DNA of 23,297 nt, taken from Gemmatimonadota bacterium. GTDB taxonomy: Bacteria; Gemmatimonadota; Gemmatimonadetes; Gemmatimonadales; Gemmatimonadaceae. Below the pieces are notes generated by a model, which saw only the letters and a list, made by a program, of their open reading frames with translations, made no database searches and had not been told where the DNA came from. The position numbers and the translations under genes were made by a program. Below, piece by piece: positions 1-20,011 of this stretch. How positions within the stretch are numbered: the first letter of the stretch is position 1; each line of letters opens with the position of its first letter. Location of the stretch: NCBI GenBank assembly GCA_031372565.1, contig JANMLN010000015.1, positions 1 to 23,297 on the forward strand, in the 5' to 3' direction.

Positions 1-652
1 AGACGAGCCGACCCAACTCCGCGTCGTACGCCGACACATAGCCGCGCACCCCGAACTCGGCTCCCGCATTGCCGATCAACACCCGCCCCTTGGCAATGCG
101 CGGCGCCCCCGAGATCGCGTACGGCTTGTTCGCGTCGACCGTCATCACGTCCCACACCGGGATGCCGGTCTTTGCGCTGAGCGCGATCAGGCGCCCGTCG
201 AGCGTTCCGAGGTAGAGCTTGCCCCGGTAGGCCGCGAGGCCACGATTGACGACGTCACAGCAGACGTAGCGTGCGACGCGACGATCCACCTTCGGGTCGT
301 AGCTCCAGAGTTCCTTCCCGGTGGCCGCGTCGTAGGCGTACACCACACTCCACGAGCCCGTGGTGTAGAGCGTTCCGCCGATCACGATGGGCGTGGCCTC
401 GAGCGCGCGCGTGGTCGGGAGCGCATGGCTCCAGACGAGGCCGAGCTGTGTCACGGTGGAGTCGCTGATCTGGCGCAGCGGACTGAAGCGCTGCTCGTCG
501 TACGTGCGCCCGTACGTGAGCCAGTTGGCGCTGTCGGCGTTGGCGGCAACCAGCCGCGCATCGTCGATGAGCGTGGTGCGGTCCGGACCCGCGCACCCGA
601 GCGCACCGAGCGTGAGGCCGACGACGAGCTGGAACCACGAGTCCCTGCGCAT
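1..652 (-). CDS. PQQ-dependent alcohol dehydrogenase (methanol/ethanol family), 5' part; runs off the window edge
   Basis: Not in the ORF track; hand-translated from ATG at 652 (in-frame GTG at 655): MRRDSWFQLVVGLTLGALGC...NWLTYGRTYDEQRFSPLRQI...LEATPIV...YVCCDVVNRG...GTLDGRLIAL...IGNAGAEFGVRGYVSAYDA. Has the vicinal CC motif of quinoprotein ADHs and a lipoprotein-like signal. Confidence 0.92.
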   Translation of the reverse strand, partial: MRRDSWFQLVVGLTLGALGCAGPDRTTLIDDARLVAANADSANWLTYGRTYDEQRFSPLRQISDSTVTQLGLVWSHALPTTRALEATPIVIGGTLYTTGSWSVVYAYDAATGKELWSYDPKVDRRVARYVCCDVVNRGLAAYRGKLYLGTLDGRLIALSAKTGIPVWDVMTVDANKPYAISGAPRIAKGRVLIGNAGAEFGVRGYVSAYDAELGRLV

Positions 653-803
653 CACGAATGCCCGATTGAGGAGGACCGACGCTGCCGATGCGCGCAAGGC
701 TAGGCGCTCGCTCGCGGACTCACAAGGAGATCCGCGGCAGCGGCGACCCTTTGCGCGCAGGATGTGCGGGACGCGATGTCCATCGGCGACGCAACCGACC
801 GGG

Positions 804-10096: not shown

Positions 10097-12415
10097 CTAG
10101 TCGGTGAGCAGGACGAGCGGGAGCACATCGTCCATGGTGGTCACGAAGGTGAACCGCATGTTGGTCCGCACCTCTTCCGGTACGTCCCGGAGGTCCTTCC
10201 GGTTTCCGTCCGGAAGAAGAACCTCGCGCAACCCGGCCCGATAGGCCGCGAGGATCTTCTCCTTGATCCCGCCGACTTCGAGCACCTTGCCCCGGAGCGT
10301 GACCTCACCGGTGACCCCGACGTCGCGCCGCACGGCCCGTCCCGAGAGCACGCTCGCAAGCGCAATCGTCACCGCGACTCCCGCCGAGGGCCCATCCTTG
10401 GGCACCGCCCCCTGCGGAAAGTGGATGTGCAGGTCGTAGCCGCGAATGTCGGCTTCGTTGATGTTGAGCTGCTGCGCCCGCGAGCGCACGAACGAATGCG
10501 CGGCGTCCACACTCTCGCGCATCACGTCGCCCAACTGACCGGTGACGGTGAGCTTGCCGGAGCCTGGCATGCGCAGCGCCTCGATCTCCATCAGGTCGCC
10601 ACCCGTCGCGGTCCACGCGAGTCCCGTGACCGTCCCCACCTCCGGAGCCTGTTCGGCCTCGGGCGCCGGCCACGCAGGCGCGCCGAGCAGCGCCTCGACG
10701 CGGGCATTGTCCATGACCCACGCGCCGTGCTCGTTGTCCGCCTTGGCGCGCGCGCGCTTGCGCATGACGCTCGCGAGCGTCCGCTCGAAGGTGCGGAGCC
10801 CGGCTTCGCGCGCGTAGCGCGTGGCCACGAACCCCAACACCTCATCCGTGAACTGGAGGTCGAGTTCCGTGAGGCCGTGCTCGTCGAGCAGGCGCGGCAG
10901 CAGATACCGCCACGCGATCTCGACCTTCTCCTCCACCGTGTATCCCGCGATGCGAATGACCTCGAGACGGTCGCGCAACGCGTCGGGAATGTCGAAGAGC
11001 GAATTGGCGGTGCAGATGAACAGCGCACTCGACAGGTCGAAGGGCAGATTCAGGTAGTGATCGGTGAAGCTCCTGTTCTGCGACGGGTCGAGCACTTCGA
11101 GCATCGCGGCGGCCGGATCGCCGGTGGCGCCGCCATTCGACATCTTGTCGACTTCATCGATCATGAGCACCGGGTCGCGCACGCCGGCGCGGCGCATGGC
11201 CTGCAGCACGAGTCCCGGCATGGCGCCCACATACGTGCGTCGATGCCCGCGAATCTCGGCTTCGTCGCGGACACCGCCCACGGAAATGCGATAGAACTGG
11301 CGGCCGATCGCGGCGGCAATCGCCTCGCCGAGCGATGTCTTGCCGGTGCCGGGCGGTCCGACGAAACAGAGAATCGGGCCGCCCGCGTCGCCCCCCTTGA
11401 GCTTGCGCACCGCGAGGTACTCGACGATGCGCTCCTTCGCTTCGCGAAGCCCCCAGTGCCGCCCGTCGAGCGCCGCCTCGACCACGCTCAAGTCGATGTC
11501 GTGCGCGCGCTCGGGCGTCGCCCACGGCAGGGCAAGCAACCAGTCGAGCCAGGCGCGCACGACGTGCGATTCGCTGGAGCTCGTGCCCAGGCCGCGCAGC
11601 CGTTCCACTTCGCGTCGTCCCTCGTCGGCGGCCGCGGCGCTCATGCCGGCCGCGTCGATCTTCTTGAGCAGCGTGAGCGCTTCGCGTTCGGCGGGGTCCG
11701 CTTCGCCAAGCTCCGCTTGAATGGTGCGCAGCTGCTGCCGGAGGATCTGCTGCCGTTGGTCGGCGGCGATCGAGTGCTCGGTCTTGGTGCGCACGTCGGC
11801 CAGCACGCGTGCCCGCACGAGCTCCTTCTCGAGGCGTGCCACGATGAACGCGAGCCGATCGGCCACGTCCACGCGTTGCAGCACCTGATCGCGATCGGCG
11901 ATCCGGAACTCGAGGTGCGTGGCGGCCAGGTCCGCGAACCGTGACGGGTCGGAGAGGTTCATGCGCAGCAGCTCGGCCGCTTCACGCGTGACACGCTCGC
12001 TGACCCCCGCCAACGACTCGGCAGCCGCCAGTGCGCGCGTCACGAGGGCGTCGGTGTCGCCGTCGGTGCGCGCCTGCGGAGGGGGGAGCACGCGCGCGAT
12101 CGGAAAGGGCGACTCGACCGTGATTTCGTCGATGATCACGCGGTGGAGCCCTTCGAGCGTCACCTGCACCGTGCCGCCGGGCAGGTTGATCCGCTCGTGC
12201 ACCCGCACCGCCACCGCCACGCGTCCCACGAACGACTGCGGGTCGGTCTCATCGGCTTCGCCCGCCGCGACCGCGAGCGCAACGACCAGCCCGGGTTCGG
12301 GGTTGGCGCGAAGCAAGGCCAGATTCTCCGGCGCCCCCATCTGCACCGCGATCGTCCCGAGCGGATAGACGAGCGTGGAGCGCAGCGCCAGCAGCGGCAG
12401 CTCGGTGGCGAGCAT
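10097..12415 (-). CDS. lon: ATP-dependent Lon protease
   Basis: [14 protein letters not shown]-domain, Walker [25 protein letters not shown], catalytic PKDGPSAG and GGIKEK. Start uncertain (12415 preferred; frame open to 12514). Confidence 0.96.
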
Positions 12416-12692
12416 GGTGGTGCTTGAGATGGACAATGCCCCTGTACGTCGCGTCAGCGAGGAGGATTGCGGCCGCGGACGACGGAGCGCAGCCGCCATG
12501 TGCCTCGGTCGCATGAACAGGTGAAGTCGGGAAACTTAGCACGCCATCGTGACGGCACGCGTTGCGTCTGAAGCGAAACCGCGCGCCGGGGATGGCCACC
12601 GCAATCGTGTGTGCGGTCGGGGCCGGGACGGCGGTCGGCGCCTGTCGGGACTGCGCCGAGGGGTGCACCGAGCAAATGGTCGCTTTGTGATA

Positions 12693-12723
12693 TTGAAGTA
12701 GAGAAGCAAACAGCTTGCATAAT
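12693..12723 (+). promoter_or_regulatory. Possible sigma70-type promoter for the lipase cassette
   Basis: TTGAAG (12693-12698) and CATAAT (12718-12723) in an AT-rich patch. The 19-nt spacer is suboptimal. Confidence 0.3.
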
Positions 12724-12828
12724 TCGAAGCGACAGTTCAGGGTCCCAAGCGGCACCCTCGTCAGCGCTGACTTGGGCGACCCTGCGGCGGCAGCCCCCCG
12801 ATAATCCGCCACCCGCATCAGCAATCTT

Positions 12829-12834
12829 GGAGGA
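12829..12834 (+). promoter_or_regulatory. Shine-Dalgarno site GGAGGA
   Basis: 7 nt upstream of ATG 12842. Confidence 0.7.
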
Positions 12835-12841
12835 TTGACTG

Positions 12842-14938
12842 ATGACGATGAATCGTCGTTTTGCCGTGCCACGCGCGGCCCTCGCCGGACTTGTTGCCTC
12901 GGCGCTCGCTTGCACTGATGTCAAGGTTCCAGCGGGTCCCTCCCAGCCCGAAGATCATGCGGGGGGCGCCGTCTGGGTGGAGCGCACCGGCGACGTCACC
13001 GTACGGGACGCGGGCATCGACCTGAACGATACCCACCTCGCGCTGGAAGTGATCGCCAACGTTGGCCTGACGATCTCCTCCGATACCCCGTTCGAGAATC
13101 CGCTCACGGGCGCGATGACCTACGAGTTTGTCTTCCCTGTTCGCGCGGAATCGCTGCATGTCGAAGCCGGGTTCGACGCTGCGGGTCGGGCGCACCTCAA
13201 CACGTACGACCTGGGCGCACCCGACTCGGTGCTCACGGCGAGCGAGCAGGTTCGCGGGACGCAGTCCATCGACGCGGCCCACGTAGCGATCGATGGTAGC
13301 GGGGCACCGTTCGTTCCGCCGACGATCGACGCACCGCCAGCGGGCGCCATGCTCGGGCTTCTGGGCGACGTCTCCGACCTGCCGATCGACGCGTACGTGG
13401 CGGGGGGCGGCGCGGGTGGCGGTGGCGGCGGTGGCGGTGGGGGCGGCGGTCGAGGTGACACCATCTTGATGATGATGCGCATGCCGGCCCCCGCGAACGA
13501 TGGGCGGTTCGCGTCGGTGCGATCGTTTCAAGATGCGCGGGGACAATTGCACGTCGTTCGGGAGCTCATGCGGTCCTCGGCGGAGCTGCCCGCCGTGCAG
13601 GTGGAGCAGCTGTTTCGGCTCCGCGGCGGCGGCTGGCGGCTGGCGCAGGTGACGGCCACGTCCGACCAAGTCGTCGGCAGGCGTCATCAAGTGGCGCGCT
13701 CCGTGACGCAGCTCCGCACGGTTCGGATGAAGTACAACCCGGCCAAGGCGCGCGAGCGTGCGCGGCGGCGCGAGAGTCGTCCACCACGGACCTCCCCGGT
13801 CGGATCGGCGCAGTCGCTCGTCATCAATCCCTGCATCAAGCGGATGGTGGGCGGCCGACCCGAGGCGGTGTCGAACCTGCGAACGGACTGCGGCACTTCC
13901 GGTGGTGGCCCCTCCGGCTTTGCGGGGACGCCGATCCCCGCAGCGGTGTGCACAGGCGGCGCGCCGGTCGAGCGGACGGGGACCGGGTCACGCAACGCCG
14001 TGCTCGTGCACGGGCTCGGCTCCAGTGCCTGCGCGTGGCAACCCATCGCCCCGAGCCTGCCGGTGAATGGTCGACTGCGGGCGGTCAGTCTTCCGTCGTT
14101 CAACTCGTACAGCGATCAGGCCGACTCCTTGCGCCGAACGCTGCTGGGGTGGGGGAACCCTCCAGGCGGTGCCCCGGTGTTGATCGGCCACAGTCAAGGG
14201 GGGGTGATCAGCCGGTTGGCGGCGCAGAGAAGCCCCGCGCTCGTCCGGGGGGTGCTCACCATCGGCACGCCAAACATGGGTGCGCCGTTCGCGCGTGATT
14301 GGCCGGTGTTCAGCTTCACCGCTGCCGCCACCGCCTCTGTGCTGATCCCGACGGTGGGCCCCGCCGTGTCGTCGGTGTTGGGCATCGGCACGACCCTTAC
14401 GTCACTGGCGCAGTGCCAAATCGGACAGGCGCTGTGCGATGCCAACCCGTCGAACGGCACGGTGGCGGGCATCAATAGTCCCAGCAATGCGTCACTGTCT
14501 GGCGCAGCCGTGGTGCATCACGCAGGCGACGATCGCCTGACGTACCGCACCTTCGGCGACTTCGCGAGCGATGGAGGCGGGCGAAGCGTGCACTCCACGA
14601 TCACCTCCGTGTATCGCGGCTCCATCGCGTGCGCCGTTGCCGGGGGCATCGTTGGGTTCCTCTGGGCACCGGCCTGGAACGCAGCCGCATACTGCGGTAC
14701 GGTGGTCGTGTCCATCGACGCGCTGGATTGGTCGTGGCAGCGCGCGGTGTCGGGCGGTGCGACCAGCGATGGGTTCATCCCGGTTTCGTCGCAGGAGTGG
14801 CCCGGGGTGAGCAACCCGAATCGCGTGAAGCGGGAAGACCAGCAGTTCCGGGTGCCGAATGGCGCGACGCATGCGGCGGAGTTGCGGGATGTGAGGACGA
14901 GCCTGGAGATCACCGCGGCTCTCACACGGTACTTTTGA
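12842..14938 (+). CDS. Lipoprotein with unknown N-terminal region, poly-Gly linker and C-terminal alpha/beta-hydrolase (lipase/PGAP1-like) domain; candidate effector
   Basis: Signal ending ALAC. VLVHGLGS oxyanion, LIGHSQGG nucleophile (14186-14200), TIGTPNMGAP, SDGFIP (Asp), THAAE (His). Confidence 0.8.
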   Translation: MTMNRRFAVPRAALAGLVASALACTDVKVPAGPSQPEDHAGGAVWVERTGDVTVRDAGIDLNDTHLALEVIANVGLTISSDTPFENPLTGAMTYEFVFPVRAESLHVEAGFDAAGRAHLNTYDLGAPDSVLTASEQVRGTQSIDAAHVAIDGSGAPFVPPTIDAPPAGAMLGLLGDVSDLPIDAYVAGGGAGGGGGGGGGGGGRGDTILMMMRMPAPANDGRFASVRSFQDARGQLHVVRELMRSSAELPAVQVEQLFRLRGGGWRLAQVTATSDQVVGRRHQVARSVTQLRTVRMKYNPAKARERARRRESRPPRTSPVGSAQSLVINPCIKRMVGGRPEAVSNLRTDCGTSGGGPSGFAGTPIPAAVCTGGAPVERTGTGSRNAVLVHGLGSSACAWQPIAPSLPVNGRLRAVSLPSFNSYSDQADSLRRTLLGWGNPPGGAPVLIGHSQGGVISRLAAQRSPALVRGVLTIGTPNMGAPFARDWPVFSFTAAATASVLIPTVGPAVSSVLGIGTTLTSLAQCQIGQALCDANPSNGTVAGINSPSNASLSGAAVVHHAGDDRLTYRTFGDFASDGGGRSVHSTITSVYRGSIACAVAGGIVGFLWAPAWNAAAYCGTVVVSIDALDWSWQRAVSGGATSDGFIPVSSQEWPGVSNPNRVKREDQQFRVPNGATHAAELRDVRTSLEITAALTRYF
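13403..13450 (+). repeat. GGN-codon low-complexity tract encoding GGGA(G)12
   Basis: 16 codons, 15 Gly, mixed GGC/GGT/GGG. Confidence 0.9.
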
Positions 14939-16092
14939 TGATGCGCTGCCTCCGTTCACCCTGGGGGGCCTCTTGCAGATGCGCGCTCCTTCTGCTCGCG
15001 ATGCTGCCGGGATGCCGGGATGCGACGGCGCCCGGCGGACGGCTCGCACCGGTCTGGAGTGCGCCGTTGGGCATGGGCCGATCCATCGAGGGCGCAGCTG
15101 ATGCCCTGCCCGCGGCAGATTCCGAGCTCGTGGTCTTTTCCGTGGCCCGAGGCGGCGAGGCGGTCGTTGTGGCGCTCGACGCGGCCACCGGCGCCAACCG
15201 ATGGGAGCGCGTGCTGCCCGGGCAGTCTTACGGCGCTTACAGCGAGCTGGTGCTCACCCCGTCGCGCGTCGTCCGGGCCACTCCGACCCGACTCACGGTG
15301 CTGGATCGCGCCGGGAGCATCCAGTGGGATTCGTCGTACACGGAAGTGGGGGGCGCGTCCGGTGTGCACGTCCGCGGCGACACGGTGCTCGTCGCCACCG
15401 GACGGACCGTGGCGGCGTGGCAGCTCTCGACGGGCGTGCGACTCTGGCGGCAGGACTATCCAGTGGACAGCGCGCTGGTGCGGCTGGGTGGCGTCACGCT
15501 GAGTGGCGACACCGTATACGTCTCGGGCACGCGCTTCTTCAGTGTGGGCGCCGACAAGCAGGGGGTTGTTCTGGCGCTGCGGCTGGGCGACGGCGTCGCT
15601 CTCTGGCGGGTGGAACCGCCCGTGTCGGAGTTCGCCAGCTTCACGAGCACTGCCAGCATCGCAGGCGCCATTCTGCTCCTCACGGACTTTGGCTCGGGCG
15701 GGGTGCAGGCGGTGGATCGCTTTGCACGGGTCCGCGTGTGGCGCACGGTGGGGCTCCCGTGCTGCGTAGGCGGCGTTGGGAGTCCGATCGTGGCCGGCAA
15801 CACGATGTACTACGCCGGTGGGGACGAAACCGTGCGCGCCCTAGACATCGCGACCGGAGCGGAACGCTGGCGTGCGCAGTCCGAAGGTCGTTTTCGGGCG
15901 CAGGCCGTTGCGTGTGGCGGCCGGATCTGGGCGACCAACTTCGCGCTGCGCGCGTACGACCTCGCCACCGGCGCCCCTCGCGGCGTTGCGCTGGATGGTC
16001 AGGAGGAGTTTGCGTCTTCAGGACTGGTCACCGCACGCGGGCTCGTGTTCGTGGCCTCCCAGCAGCGCTTCAACGCGTTCGCGTGCAACTGA
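14938..16092 (+). CDS. PQQ-like/BamB-like beta-propeller lipoprotein, copy 1 (candidate immunity protein)
   Basis: ATG overlaps the lipase stop (TGATG). Lipobox LPGC; repeated ALDxxTG...W tryptophan-docking motifs; 384 aa. Confidence 0.85.
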   Translation: MMRCLRSPWGASCRCALLLLAMLPGCRDATAPGGRLAPVWSAPLGMGRSIEGAADALPAADSELVVFSVARGGEAVVVALDAATGANRWERVLPGQSYGAYSELVLTPSRVVRATPTRLTVLDRAGSIQWDSSYTEVGGASGVHVRGDTVLVATGRTVAAWQLSTGVRLWRQDYPVDSALVRLGGVTLSGDTVYVSGTRFFSVGADKQGVVLALRLGDGVALWRVEPPVSEFASFTSTASIAGAILLLTDFGSGGVQAVDRFARVRVWRTVGLPCCVGGVGSPIVAGNTMYYAGGDETVRALDIATGAERWRAQSEGRFRAQAVACGGRIWATNFALRAYDLATGAPRGVALDGQEEFASSGLVTARGLVFVASQQRFNAFACN

Positions 16093-16102
16093 GCACGTTC
16101 GT

Positions 16103-17254
16103 ATGTCCGCTCTTCGGTCAGCCGAGATCCTCTCACGGACGCGCGCGTTCGCCCTGCTCGCGATTCTGCTGGGTTGCCGAGATGCGACGGCTCCCGGCGG
16201 TCGCCTCGCGGCCGTCTGGAGCGTACCGTTGGGAAGCGGCCGATCCATCGATGGTGGCGGCAACACCCTGCCTGCGGCCGACCATGACATGGTGGTCTTT
16301 TCGGTCGCGAAAGGCGGCGAGAACGTCGTCGTCGCGCTCGATGCGGCCACCGGCGCAAGCCGCTGGGACCGCGTGTTGCCCGGGCCTACGTTCGGCGGTT
16401 ACACCGAGCTGGTGCTCACCCCGACGCGGGTCGTGCGGGCCACGTCGACCCGGCTGACGGTGTTGGATCGCGTCGGAGGGATCCAGTGGGATTCGACGTA
16501 CGCGGAAGTGGGGGGCGTGTCCGGGCTGTACGTCCGCGGCGACACGGTGCTCGTCGCCACGGGACGGGCCGTTAGGGCCTGGCAGCTCTCGACTGGGGTG
16601 CGCCTCTGGCGGCAGGAGTATCCGGTTGACAGCGCACTGGTACGACTGGGGGGCGTCACGGTGAGCGGCGACACCGTGTACGCCTCGGGGACGCGCTTCT
16701 TCAGTGTGGGTGCGGACAAGCAGGGGGTCGTCCTGGCCTTGCGGCTGGGCGACGGCGTCCCCCTGTGGCGGGTGGAACCGCCCGTGTCGGAGTTCGCCAG
16801 CTTCAGGAGCACGGCCAGCATCGCCGGCTCCCTGCTGCTGCTCACGGACTTCGGTTCCGGCGGGGTGCAGGCGGTGGATCGCTTTGCGTCGGTCCGCGTG
16901 TGGCGCACGGTAGGCCTCCCGTGCTGCGTCGGCGGGATCGGTGCGCCGATTGTCGACGGCAACGCGTTGTACTATGCCGGTGGCGACGAAACCGTGCGCG
17001 CACTGGATGTGACGACGGGGCGCGAACGCTGGCGCGCGCAGTCCGAAGGTGGGTTTCGCGCCCAGCCCGTGACGTGTGGCGGCCGGATCTGGGCCACCAA
17101 CTTCGCCCTGCACGCGTACGACCTCGCCACCGGCGCCCGCCGCGGCCTCGCGCTGGATGGCCAAGAAGAGTTCGCGTCATCCGGGCTGGCCACCGCGCGC
17201 GGGCTCGTATTCGTGGCCTCCGAGCAGCGCTTCAACGCGTTTGCGTGCAACTGA
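16103..17254 (+). CDS. PQQ-like/BamB-like beta-propeller lipoprotein, copy 2
   Basis: ATG 10 nt after the copy 1 stop. Lipobox LLGC. About 55 differences in 359 mature residues versus copy 1, with no indels. Confidence 0.85.
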   Translation: MSALRSAEILSRTRAFALLAILLGCRDATAPGGRLAAVWSVPLGSGRSIDGGGNTLPAADHDMVVFSVAKGGENVVVALDAATGASRWDRVLPGPTFGGYTELVLTPTRVVRATSTRLTVLDRVGGIQWDSTYAEVGGVSGLYVRGDTVLVATGRAVRAWQLSTGVRLWRQEYPVDSALVRLGGVTVSGDTVYASGTRFFSVGADKQGVVLALRLGDGVPLWRVEPPVSEFASFRSTASIAGSLLLLTDFGSGGVQAVDRFASVRVWRTVGLPCCVGGIGAPIVDGNALYYAGGDETVRALDVTTGRERWRAQSEGGFRAQPVTCGGRIWATNFALHAYDLATGARRGLALDGQEEFASSGLATARGLVFVASEQRFNAFACN

Positions 17255-17280
17255 GCACGTGCCATCCAAGCCCGACGTTG

Positions 17281-17424
17281 GAGTGGCCAGGGGTGAATAG
17301 TCCAAATCGCGTCAAGCGGGAAGACCAGCAGTTCCGGGTACCGAATGGCGCAACGCACGCGGCGGAGTTGCGGGATGTGAGGACGATGAATCAGATCAGT
17401 CTCGCACTCGCGCGGTACTTCTAG
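17281..17424 (+). pseudogene. Orphan allelic copy of the last 47 codons plus stop of the lipase gene (repeat of 14795-14938)
   Basis: EWPGVNSPNRVKREDQQFRVPNGATHAAELRDVRTMNQISLALARYF* versus EWPGVSNPNRVKREDQQFRVPNGATHAAELRDVRTSLEITAALTRYF*; 39/47 identical, ungapped. Confidence 0.92.
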
Positions 17425-18591
17425 ATGATGCGCGGAATGCGTTCAGCATGGCGAGTCTGGTGCGGTTGCACGTTCGTGCTGCCCGTCGTGCTGCCCGTCG
17501 TGCTGTCCGCATGCCGAGATACCACGGCTCCGGGCGGGCGCCTCTCGGCCGTCTGGAGTGTGCCGCTGGGAACAGGCCGGTCCATCGACGGCGCAGCGAA
17601 TTCGGTGCCGGCAGCCGACGCTGATATGGTGATTTTTTCGGTCGCACAAGGCGGCGAGGCCGTCGTAGTAGCGCTCGATGCGAGTACCGGCGGCAGTCGC
17701 TGGGCGCGCGCGATACCTGGCCCATCCGTCGGCTCGTACAGCGACCTCGTACTCACCCCGACGCGGGTCGTCAGGGCTACCCCGAACCAGCTCACGGTGC
17801 TTGATCGCGCCGGAAACATCTTGTGGGATTCAACGTACCCGGAGGTGGGGGGCGTGTCCGGGATGCACGTTCGCGGCGACACGGTGCTCGTCGCCACCGG
17901 CCGGACCGTCGCGGCGTGGCAGCTCTCGACCGGCGTGCGACTGTGGCGGCAGGACTATCCAGTGGACAGCGCGCTCGTACGACTGGGTGGCGTCACGGTG
18001 AGTGGCGACACCGTGTACGCCTCGGGCACGCGCTTCTTCAGCGTGGGCGCGGACAAGCAGGGAGTTATCCTGGCCTTGCGCCTTGGCGACGGCGCCTCCC
18101 TTTGGCGCTTGGAACCGCCCGTGCCGGAGTTCGCCAGCTTCACGAGCGCCGCCAGCATCGCAGGCTCTCTGCTGCTGCTCCTCGATTTCGGCTCTGGTGG
18201 GGTGCAGGCGGTGGATCGCTTTGCGCCGGTTCGTGTGTGGCGCACGGTGGGGCTCCCGTGCTGCGTTGGCGGGATCGGCTCGCCTATTGTCGACGGCAGC
18301 ACACTGTACTATGCCGGTGGCGACGAAACCGTGCGCGCGTTGGATGTGACGACGGGGCGCGAACGGTGGCGCGCCCAGTCCGAGGGCGGCTTTCGTGCGC
18401 AGGCCGTGGCGTGTGGAGGCCGGATCTGGGCCACCAACTTCGCGCTGCGTGCGTACGACCTCGCCACCGGTGCCCCCCGCGGCGTCGCGCTGGATGGTCA
18501 GGAGGAGTACGCATCGTCCGCGCTTGCAACCGCACGCGGGCTCGTGTTCGTGGCCTCCCAGCAGCGCTTCAACGCGTTCGCGTGCAACTGA
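17425..18591 (+). CDS. PQQ-like/BamB-like beta-propeller lipoprotein, copy 3
   Basis: ATG directly follows the orphan fragment's TAG. Lipobox LSAC. Same 359-aa mature domain ending QRFNAFACN. Confidence 0.85.
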   Translation: MMRGMRSAWRVWCGCTFVLPVVLPVVLSACRDTTAPGGRLSAVWSVPLGTGRSIDGAANSVPAADADMVIFSVAQGGEAVVVALDASTGGSRWARAIPGPSVGSYSDLVLTPTRVVRATPNQLTVLDRAGNILWDSTYPEVGGVSGMHVRGDTVLVATGRTVAAWQLSTGVRLWRQDYPVDSALVRLGGVTVSGDTVYASGTRFFSVGADKQGVILALRLGDGASLWRLEPPVPEFASFTSAASIAGSLLLLLDFGSGGVQAVDRFAPVRVWRTVGLPCCVGGIGSPIVDGSTLYYAGGDETVRALDVTTGRERWRAQSEGGFRAQAVACGGRIWATNFALRAYDLATGAPRGVALDGQEEYASSALATARGLVFVASQQRFNAFACN

Positions 18592-18645
18592 GCCTGGGTT
18601 TCCCAGTCGGAAACGCGCAGGCGCCTTGCTGACCCAACTCCCAAC

Positions 18646-18674
18646 TTGTTGTGAGCACATCGGTTAGTTAGCTT
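18646..18674 (+). promoter_or_regulatory. Putative sigma70 promoter of ffh
   Basis: TTGTTG (18646-18651), 17-nt spacer, TAGCTT (18669-18674). ATG follows 8 nt later with no SD. Confidence 0.5.
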
Positions 18675-18682
18675 CCACGGCT

Positions 18683-20011
18683 ATGTTTGACGAGCTCGCA
18701 GAAAAGCTGGAACAGACCTTCGCCCGCCTCCGCGGGCGGGGCGTACTGACCGATGCCGACATCAAGGACGGTCTGCGGGAGATCCGCCGCGTCCTCCTCG
18801 AAGCCGACGTTTCGTTCCAGCTGACGCGCGACTTCCTCGAGCGCGTTGAAGAGCGCGCGAAGGGGGTTGCCGCGCTGCGCACGGTGCAGCCCGCCCAGCA
18901 ACTCGTCAAGATCGTCTACGACGAGCTGACCACCATGCTCGGCGAGCGGCGCGCGCCGCTCAAGCTGAGCTCGGTCCCGCCGACGGTCGTGATGCTCGTC
19001 GGTCTCCAGGGCTCGGGCAAGACGACCAGCGCGGCCAAGCTCGCCCGCAAGCTCAAGGACGAACACAAGGCGGTGCGCATGATCGCGGCGGACGTGTATC
19101 GCCCGGCCGCCATCGACCAGCTCGAGACGCTCGGCAAGTCGCTCGACATTCCGGTCTACGCCGATCGCACCACGACCGACGTCGTGAAGATCGCGCGCGC
19201 CGGGCTCGAACTCGCACGCCGTGAGCGCGACCGCGTGGTCATTGTCGACACCGCAGGCCGCCTGCAGATCGACGAGGACATGATGGCCGAGCTGGTGCGC
19301 CTCAAGGAGGCGATCCGCCCGGACGAGATCCTGCTCGTGGCCGACGGCATGACCGGTCAGGACGCCGTGAAGATCGCGGAGGGGTTCAACAGCCGCCTCG
19401 ACGTGACCGGCGTGATCCTCACCAAGATGGACGGTGATGCGCGCGGCGGTGCCGCCCTGTCGATCTACGGCACGCTCAAGAAGCCGATCAAGTACATCGG
19501 CGTCGGCGAGAAGACGGACGCCCTCGAGGAGTTCCACCCGGACCGCATGGCCGGGCGCATCCTCCAGCAGGGCGACGTCCTCACCCTCGTCGAAAAGGCG
19601 CAGGAAGCGTTCGACAACGACACGGCCAAGGCGCTCGAAAAGAAGGTCCGCAAGGAAGGGATGGACCTGAACGACTTCCTGCAGGCCATGAAGCAGGTGC
19701 AGAAGCTCGGGCCGCTCGAGGGCGTCCTCAAGATGCTGCCCGGCGTGAACACCAAGATGCTCAAGGACGCCAAGGTCGACCCGAAGCGCCTCAAGCACAT
19801 CGAGGCGATCGTGCTGTCGATGACGGCCGCGGAACGGAAGGACCCGACCCTGATGAACGGATCGCGCCGAGCGCGCGTGGCCAAGGGAAGCGGGCGCCCG
19901 GTGAGCGAGGTCAACCGGCTTCTTGAGCAGTTCCGGGAAATGCGCAAGATGATGAAAAAGGCCAGTTCCGGGGGGATGCGCATGCCTCCCATGTTCGGCG
20001 GCTTTCGTTAG
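18683..20011 (+). CDS. ffh: Signal recognition particle protein
   Basis: GLQGSGKTT, DTAGRL, TKMDGDARGGAALS, FHPDRMAGRIL, Met-rich M domain with SRRARVAKGSG. Confidence 0.98.
   Translation: MFDELAEKLEQTFARLRGRGVLTDADIKDGLREIRRVLLEADVSFQLTRDFLERVEERAKGVAALRTVQPAQQLVKIVYDELTTMLGERRAPLKLSSVPPTVVMLVGLQGSGKTTSAAKLARKLKDEHKAVRMIAADVYRPAAIDQLETLGKSLDIPVYADRTTTDVVKIARAGLELARRERDRVVIVDTAGRLQIDEDMMAELVRLKEAIRPDEILLVADGMTGQDAVKIAEGFNSRLDVTGVILTKMDGDARGGAALSIYGTLKKPIKYIGVGEKTDALEEFHPDRMAGRILQQGDVLTLVEKAQEAFDNDTAKALEKKVRKEGMDLNDFLQAMKQVQKLGPLEGVLKMLPGVNTKMLKDAKVDPKRLKHIEAIVLSMTAAERKDPTLMNGSRRARVAKGSGRPVSEVNRLLEQFREMRKMMKKASSGGMRMPPMFGGFR

Follow-up and report, generated by a model that had tools for sequence, protein, structure and literature searches.

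In the window analysed here, a stretch of 23,297 nucleotides that makes up contig C42 of a Gemmatimonadota genome, a predicted lipoprotein lipase is encoded immediately upstream of an array of beta-propeller lipoproteins. The link between this lipase and its propeller partner is specific, ancient and far beyond chance, as judged from its recurrence in other genomes. With regard to function, we hold it possible, at a probability of roughly 0.4, that the pair comprises a secretion-system-independent lipase effector and a propeller which would act as its inhibitor or immunity protein. The genome (G000) is a metagenome-assembled genome of 4.4 Mb in 201 contigs and is 95.85% complete.

The lipase gene (12842-14938, plus strand, 698 amino acids) is an open reading frame (ORF) recognised by alpha/beta-hydrolase families of Pfam. 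It is followed on the same strand by propeller 1 (14938-16092, 384 amino acids), propeller 2 (16103-17254, 383 amino acids), an orphan stretch that repeats the final 52 lipase codons (17266-17424) and propeller 3 (17425-18591, 388 amino acids). The propeller ORFs were assigned with Pfam PQQ_2, and the orphan was identified by protein and nucleotide comparison with the lipase 3' end. These five features lie between lon (10097-12514, minus strand) on the left and a plus-strand row of ffh (18683-20011), rpsP, rimM and trmD on the right. The stop codon of the lipase and the start codon of propeller 1 share one base (TGATG), and the TAG of the orphan directly abuts the ATG of propeller 3. All four proteins have a lipobox by eye, with the motif ALAC and Cys24 (codon 12911-12913) in the lipase, read without a predictor, LPGC with an unusual proline at position -2 in propeller 1, LLGC in propeller 2 and LSAC in propeller 3; the lipobox cysteine is nearly invariant in the family alignments of both lipase and propeller. 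An earlier note on this DNA had given the same gene order, coordinates, single strand and placement between lon and ffh, together with the two tight junctions and the four lipoboxes, and this description was borne out in all essentials.

Conservation and distribution of the lipase-propeller pair

A profile of the lipase was used to gather 79 loci from public genomes of Gemmatimonadota (Gemmatimonadaceae and Longimicrobiaceae) and Acidobacteriota. Of the 24 lipase genes from Gemmatimonadota, all but one that is cut off by a contig end (23/23) are followed on the same strand by a propeller gene, 17-192 nucleotides (nt) after the lipase match. The coupled pair proposed in the earlier note is thus a conserved one. 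It recurs in whole-genome searches of the relatives G005, G034, G037 and G013, and in locus L041 two complete lipase-propeller pairs stand in tandem. G000 itself holds three modules, on C42 (this locus), C127 and C160. On C127, the lipase and propeller are 44% and 42% identical to the C42 copies and their genes overlap (ATGA). The C160 module (L112:2311-5650, minus strand) consists of a 231-amino acid uncharacterised protein, a GHSFG hydrolase of 479 amino acids whose signal peptide is a plain one, and a propeller lipoprotein of 407 amino acids, the start of which overlaps the end of the hydrolase gene. This three-gene form is the rule in Vicinamibacterales-type loci, where a PQQ_2 propeller lies directly downstream in seven of eight loci scanned for ORFs, and the upstream protein of C160 matches the upstream proteins of those loci (hhalign E 5.5e-5, probability 66%). 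The three-gene upstream ORFs (alignment A4) were also considered as homologues of the N-terminal domain of the lipase (alignment A3), profile comparison giving a probability of 0.3% and showing no homology; a 'Y..G..-..NV' ending shared by the two, noted by eye, is a lead only.

Propellers are in addition paired with two other lipase architectures in Acidobacteriota, and two loci carry PD40-type propeller genes in place of PQQ_2. In 13 Terriglobia-type homologues (N-domain, lipase and BACON; 875-976 amino acids), no PQQ_2 propeller was found within 4.2 kb, which suggests that the propeller is not needed for lipase folding as such. Propeller counts outside Gemmatimonadota are inflated by split weak matches and were used only as none versus some. 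Lipase-less propellers in G003 and G024 score 134-183 bits with the propeller profile and are not separable from general PQQ_2 proteins. At one of these places (L109, G024:C222, 1696-3988, minus strand), a 241-amino acid Abhydrolase_6/Ser_hydrolase gene lies 224 nt upstream of a 449-amino acid PQQ_2 propeller (148 bits) and is adjoined by a DUF4265 gene, possibly as another hydrolase-propeller pairing.

The pair is rare. Among 301 genomes of the phylum with a completeness of 90% or more, nine have a family member at E <=1e-30, in 6 of 126 genera, one of the nine carriers (G136) being unpublished; several carriers hold at least two to three divergent copies, which are lower bounds given that three candidates were scored per genome. 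In the congeners G004 (C38) and G005 (C1), lon and ffh are divergent direct neighbours with an intergenic distance of about 150-230 bp by reading of the sequences, and a conserved motif proximal to ffh resumes near 18640 in the window. This comparison indicates that the cassette is an accessory insertion of about 6.1 kb between lon and the conserved upstream region of ffh (approximately 12515-18640). At 12 loci examined, the flanks are unrelated housekeeping genes with nothing in common, and no secretion, VgrG/PAAR, TpsB, transporter or TonB-dependent receptor genes were seen among them. The only mobile- or defence-type neighbours at these loci are a gene for a group II intron reverse transcriptase/maturase (L025:10570-12012) and an Abi_2 gene (L042:5085-5657), each of which adjoins one cassette. 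A tblastn search of the plasmid collection gave no match at E 1e-8.

Structure of the proteins and origin of the array

The Pfam families Abhydrolase_6, Abhydrolase_1 and PGAP1 match the lipase at residues 387-498, and the nearest Pfam sequence families of the lipase and its relatives are PGAP1, palmitoyl-protein thioesterase, DUF676, LCAT and DUF7379. The nucleophile motif GHSQG occupies residues 449-453. From the family alignment, the predicted triad is Ser451 (codon 14192-14194), Asp643 (14768-14770) and His677 (14870-14872); in the 22-row lipase alignment (A1) the serine is present in 21 rows and the aspartate and histidine in all 22, and His450 is conserved too. The deviating row (P0020) has GHNNGG instead of GHSxGG, with asparagine at the nucleophile position and the aspartate and histidine kept, and may be an inactive variant. 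A word-based protein search gave only two relatives of the lipase, and an exhaustive HMMER search was used instead; this returned 484 relatives at E <=1e-3 (103 at E <=1e-10), many of which have 650-750 amino acids and align over their full length at about 28% identity. No specific NCBIfam family was matched, and the ESM Atlas gave only generic esterase clusters (PGAP1, DUF676, Palm_thioest).

AlphaFold2 (AF2) models divide the protein into an N-terminal beta-rich domain (residues ~55-315; 13004-13786), a basic helix, a disordered linker rich in glycine and proline (316-369) and the alpha/beta-hydrolase domain (residues ~370-698; 13949-14935), in which two long, partly hydrophobic helical insertions are modelled at 482-522 and 579-637. 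The best Foldseek matches of the hydrolase domain are the family I true lipases 3w9u, 1ys1, 9g8u_A and 1ex9 (E 9e-7 to 2e-6, TMt 0.48-0.57), at 13-17% identity, so that the likeness is at the level of the fold only. These closest folds include LipA from Pseudomonas and Burkholderia and the LipA:LipB (lipase:foldase) complex from Acinetobacter. The N-domain, modelled with a predicted local distance difference test (pLDDT) score of 82.7, matched no Pfam sequence family. LolA-family chains are its top matches in both Foldseek (E 4e-4) and VIA-align (Z 8.7, 136 aligned residues, rmsd 4.1), and LolA, LolB, LppX and RseB chains dominate the two structure searches. With a best Z of 8.7 and Foldseek TM values of 0.2-0.4 the assignment is borderline, and we regard the domain as a putative LolA/LolB-like lipid-binding open barrel. 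A run of about 14 glycines encoded by GGC, GGT and GGG codons lies in a disordered loop of this domain (residues ~191-205; 13403-13456); paralogues have shorter runs at this place, which is a possible length-variable tract.

The partner is an eight-bladed PQQ/BamB-like propeller lipoprotein. Pfam PQQ_2 matches the three copies at E 1.6e-20 to 9.6e-27, and the profile matches in the PDB are BamB and PQQ enzymes (E ~1e-27 to 1e-33). The BamB equivalog model TIGR03300 gives the three propellers 39-47 bits and the C127 copy 66 bits, far from its cut-off of 285.2, which no protein in G000 reaches. The three copies are 82% identical to each other, in protein and DNA alike, with the N-terminal third most divergent (70-80% identity). 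Pairwise ratios of non-synonymous to synonymous substitution rates (dN/dS) are 0.18-0.23 at a dS of about 0.5, and all three propellers are under purifying selection. Elsewhere in the genome, a propeller relic (G000:C18:17528-17726; L011:5529-5726) retains 150-200 nt with about 80% nucleotide identity to propeller 2, one in-frame TGA and 59-68% protein identity over 53-66 amino acids, and no lipase remnant was detected nearby. Another PQQ-type propeller protein is encoded at the left edge of the window (2-697, minus strand, running off the stretch; Pfam PQQ E 1.2e-27); it is unrelated to the lipase-linked clade, since the profile of the lipase-linked propellers does not match it.

Successive propeller genes of the array are 1162 and 1337 nt apart, and the stretch 14787-14934, within the lipase 3' end, is repeated at 17273-17420 with 82% nucleotide identity. 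This repeat pattern shows an origin by tandem duplication, in which one unit reached from inside the lipase 3' end through a propeller and another was a propeller alone. The duplications are old and of similar age because dS is about 0.5 among all propeller copies and 0.61 for the tail. The identity is mosaic, with about 95% between 14810-14890 and 17296-17376 and up to 96% in the region of propeller codons ~151-210, against 73-80% in the flanks, a pattern suggestive of gene conversion among the duplicated units. At the protein level the orphan shares 77% identity with lipase residues 647-698 (E 1.4e-19), the last 14 residues of the lipase being the part in which the two differ. It keeps the His677 motif, is without Ser451 and Asp643, has no convincing start codon and is out of frame with propeller 2; its dN/dS relative to the lipase is 0.26, calculated from only 36 synonymous sites. 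What the earlier note took for an orphan toxin tip is accordingly the end of the same lipase and not a different toxin. It reads as a by-product of the tandem duplication rather than as a stored alternative tip. A scan of 12400-18800 for promoters and terminators gave no promoter-like site and one terminator-like site, within propeller 2, which is fewer than in shuffled sequences. None of the sequencing runs listed for this DNA was of RNA.

Comparison with toxin and lipase systems

The locus had been presented in the earlier note as a candidate polymorphic toxin-immunity system. In Zhang et al. 2012 (PMC3482391), polymorphic toxins have a shared N-terminal trunk and diverse, swappable C-terminal toxin domains, alpha/beta-hydrolase toxin domains are listed, and propellers were then not found among the immunity proteins. 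The N-domain and the lipase domain go together in each of the 22 rows of A1, and Pfam revealed no alternative C-terminal domain on the shared N-domain in 32 relatives. Among the best 150 of the 484 HMMER matches, those beginning in the N-domain either continue as far as the lipase domain or belong to short proteins, none longer than 339 amino acids, and in the homologue searches the N-domain was seen only together with the lipase domain of this family. Two arrangements may be likened to the orphan cassettes of such systems, namely the 52-codon tail with propeller 3 in this array, which is of the same domain as the lipase, and a 190-amino acid C-terminal remnant with a propeller in G005:C13. 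The C-terminal swaps and related features anticipated for such a system were thus not recovered; instead, a single combination of N-domain and lipase was seen, one propeller is the rule and no other short orphan tail was detected in the fetched loci. Neither the lipase nor the 32 relatives contain VgrG, PAAR, Rhs, two-partner secretion (TPS) or other trafficking or secretion domains according to Pfam, in agreement with the earlier note. Likewise, models for TssC (PF05943) and Hcp (PF05638), which matched the E. coli controls, found no type VI secretion system (T6SS) sheath or Hcp gene in G000. With neither swappable C-terminal domains nor a trafficking domain recognised, the pair does not qualify as a polymorphic toxin system in the strict sense, nor, since no T6SS was found, as a Tle-Tli system.

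The pair nevertheless shares features with several known systems. As in Tle-Tli, a GxSxG alpha/beta-hydrolase gene (here with GHSQG, Asp643 and His677) is coupled to a downstream gene whose product is an envelope lipoprotein, and some Tle loci have tandem extra immunity genes. Unlike in Tle-Tli, the lipase has its own lipoprotein signal peptide and a LolA-like N-domain, and it is partnered by a complete PQQ-like propeller of eight blades; the Pfam and NCBIfam matches included no Tle or Tli family, in a search without a dedicated Tle/Tli model. The candidate toxin resembles SitA of SitA-SitI in being itself a lipoprotein, with Cys24 after ALA by eye, and in having no injection machine. It differs in that SitA is modular, with varied toxin domains, and TraAB-dependent, whereas here one fixed lipase domain is found with an envelope-located partner. 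With LipA-LipB (Lif), the pair shares the closest solved fold of the catalytic domain and a partner gene immediately downstream in one operon. The Lif foldase is helical; in the place of a Lif-type foldase there are PQQ_2 propellers, that is, beta-propeller lipoproteins in several diverged copies that persist beside broken lipases. BamB belongs to the same superfamily and shares the lipoprotein anchor, whereas the propellers described here are far below the equivalog cut-off, accessory, multi-copy and linked to a lipase.

Tsi1 and the predicted PefE are propeller-like proteins that neutralise a secreted effector or are encoded with one. The effector countered by Tsi1, which is small and only part of a propeller, is a peptidoglycan amidase, whereas the PefE gene is found in an operon with a PAAR effector; pairing with a lipase and a PQQ_2/BamB-like lipoprotein nature are absent from both. 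According to the literature cited, Tsi1 is a partial propeller immunity protein (PMC3391265), PefE is a predicted propeller immunity protein and Tli is a lipoprotein which must be periplasmic for protection (both 10.1101/2023.03.28.534661), and the lipoprotein toxin SitA needs no injection machine (PMC8546572). In searches of full-text literature, supplements aside, no account was found in which a lipoprotein lipase from these phyla has a PQQ/BamB-like propeller as its partner.

Possible functions and their meaning

A protective role of the propeller, and with it a lipase that endangers membranes, is favoured by the rare, patchy and multi-copy occurrence of the pair, its varied insertion sites, the presence of propellers beside dead lipases, the retention of extra diverged copies under purifying selection and the existence of propeller-less homologues. 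The contigs of the congener G005 are instructive in this respect. On C6, the lipase gene has one in-frame TAG and one frameshift and is followed by an intact and a frameshifted propeller. On C13, the signal peptide and about 35 N-terminal residues are frameshifted into the last 190 residues of the lipase, with loss of the half that contains the nucleophile, and an intact propeller follows. G000 has two lipases of this type against four propellers and one relic; the surplus of propellers over intact lipases described in the earlier note is therefore found in both genomes. By analogy, the reading as effector and immunity protein is also supported by the precedents of lipase effectors with lipoprotein immunity (Tle-Tli) and of propeller-type immunity (Tsi1, PefE). 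In the lipoprotein, a flexible linker would join a LolA-like lipid-binding barrel to a lipase domain with a Ser-Asp-His triad. The propeller would most likely bind the lipase in the envelope and shield the producer's own membranes, and the pair would be delivered without a T6SS, type V secretion system or Rhs carrier. That the lipase acts on membranes, that the propeller binds and neutralises it and that there is any transfer to other cells are predictions, and the extra propellers may represent a broadened immunity repertoire.

It is tempting to go one step further and see in the pair a new machine-free class of interbacterial effectors, patchily distributed in Gemmatimonadota and Acidobacteriota, with a lipoprotein lipase on a LolA-like carrier and BamB-like propeller immunities. 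As a carrier of acyl chains, the LolA-like domain might let the lipase leave the outer membrane of the producer, by contact or in vesicles, and insert into the membrane of a neighbour, and the three diverged propellers might form a reserve of immunity proteins, directed at variants of the lipase that rival strains produce. We consider this extended proposal unlikely.

A number of observations weigh against an effector with its immunity protein, beginning with the negative results for trafficking domains and T6SS components given above; we also know of no toxin delivery route in the phylum. The variation in propeller copy number expected in the earlier note was not observed, since 19 of the 20 loci with more than 1.3 kb of room downstream have one propeller and only L035 has two. 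Nor does a profile specific for the tail detect a short orphan tail in the fetched loci anywhere but in this array, the sole other C-terminal remnant being the deletion derivative on G005:C13. No signal of positive selection was obtained overall. Lipase and propeller diverge in step (44% vs 42%, 42% vs 40% and 27% vs 28% identity), which fits any obligate partnership, and the standalone Terriglobia lipases indicate that the enzyme need not be self-toxic. BACON, ricin-lectin, TIG and Ig domains, as typically found in degradative enzymes that are secreted or sit on the cell surface, occur in distant relatives of the lipase, and the closest solved folds are lipases with a helper encoded downstream. 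G005 is itself metagenome-assembled, and its single stops and frameshifts could be assembly errors. Complex prediction for lipase residues 370-698 with propeller 1 residues 27-384, from separate alignments, gave scores of 0.18 and 0.01 against a mark of 0.32 and informs neither way.

Alternatively, the pair may be an enzyme with a dedicated helper and no antagonism may be involved, which we judge to be nearly as likely as the effector-immunity reading. The lipase would then serve to scavenge external lipids for its own cell or to remodel lipids or lipoproteins of the outer membrane, with the propeller as scaffold, anchor, activator or steric chaperone, functionally like Lif, and with the LolA-like domain feeding acyl chains into the active site. 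In structure, the catalytic domain comes closest to lipases of families I.1 and I.2, the LipA:LipB complex among them. The near-universal 1:1 linkage with start/stop overlap, the equal rates of divergence of the two genes and the purifying selection on the propellers are all in line with a helper, as are the carbohydrate-binding modules of relatives, the conserved third gene of the C160/Vicinamibacterales type, which suggests a machine of several parts, and the fact that both LolA-like and BamB-like folds are folds of envelope biogenesis. A helper, however, is not expected to remain intact beside broken or truncated lipases, nor to be kept as three diverged copies, and 13 homologues manage without a propeller nearby. 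With only nine carriers among 301 genomes and an insertion site that changes from lineage to lineage, the function is not a housekeeping one, and the all-beta partner has no match to the Lif family. Those divergent copies could alternatively be substrate- or surface-binding subunits of a nutritional exo-enzyme, extra copies widening the range of ligands as do the lipoproteins of polysaccharide utilisation loci. The lipoprotein anchors of both partners, the lectin, BACON and TIG modules in relatives and the divergence concentrated in the N-terminal third of the three copies are consistent with such a role. We consider it quite improbable, as no transporter or TonB-dependent receptor is linked at the 12 loci examined, retention beside dead lipases is left unexplained and we know of no ligand of the surface- or substrate-binding kind for PQQ_2 propellers.

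The triplication, or the adjacency as such, could finally be an assembly artefact or chance without a functional link. The metagenome assembly is fragmented, no contig among those listed bridges propeller 1 and propeller 2, and the runs contained two short-sided chimeric joints between copies. The copies differ at 18% of their nucleotides, though, and at 82% identity they are easily told apart, which makes collapse or mis-joining unlikely. In one study, three samples, possibly including the source, have public contigs that connect the lipase with propeller 1, two of these samples also have contigs that run from propeller 2 through the orphan to propeller 3 without any difference, and the linkage is complete elsewhere (23/23); an artefact is thus very improbable. 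Taken together, we prefer the effector-immunity reading at the strength given at the outset.

Overall, our data define a conserved and portable lipase-propeller module in Gemmatimonadota and Acidobacteriota, two phyla that are abundant in soil and sediment and whose competition is little understood. Should the propeller prove to be an immunity protein, lipases would gain an immunity fold that is new for them, lipoprotein effectors would no longer be confined to the myxobacteria, and a LolA-like domain might have a part in the passage of a toxin from cell to cell. Should it be a helper, it would represent a new kind of lipase-specific partner.

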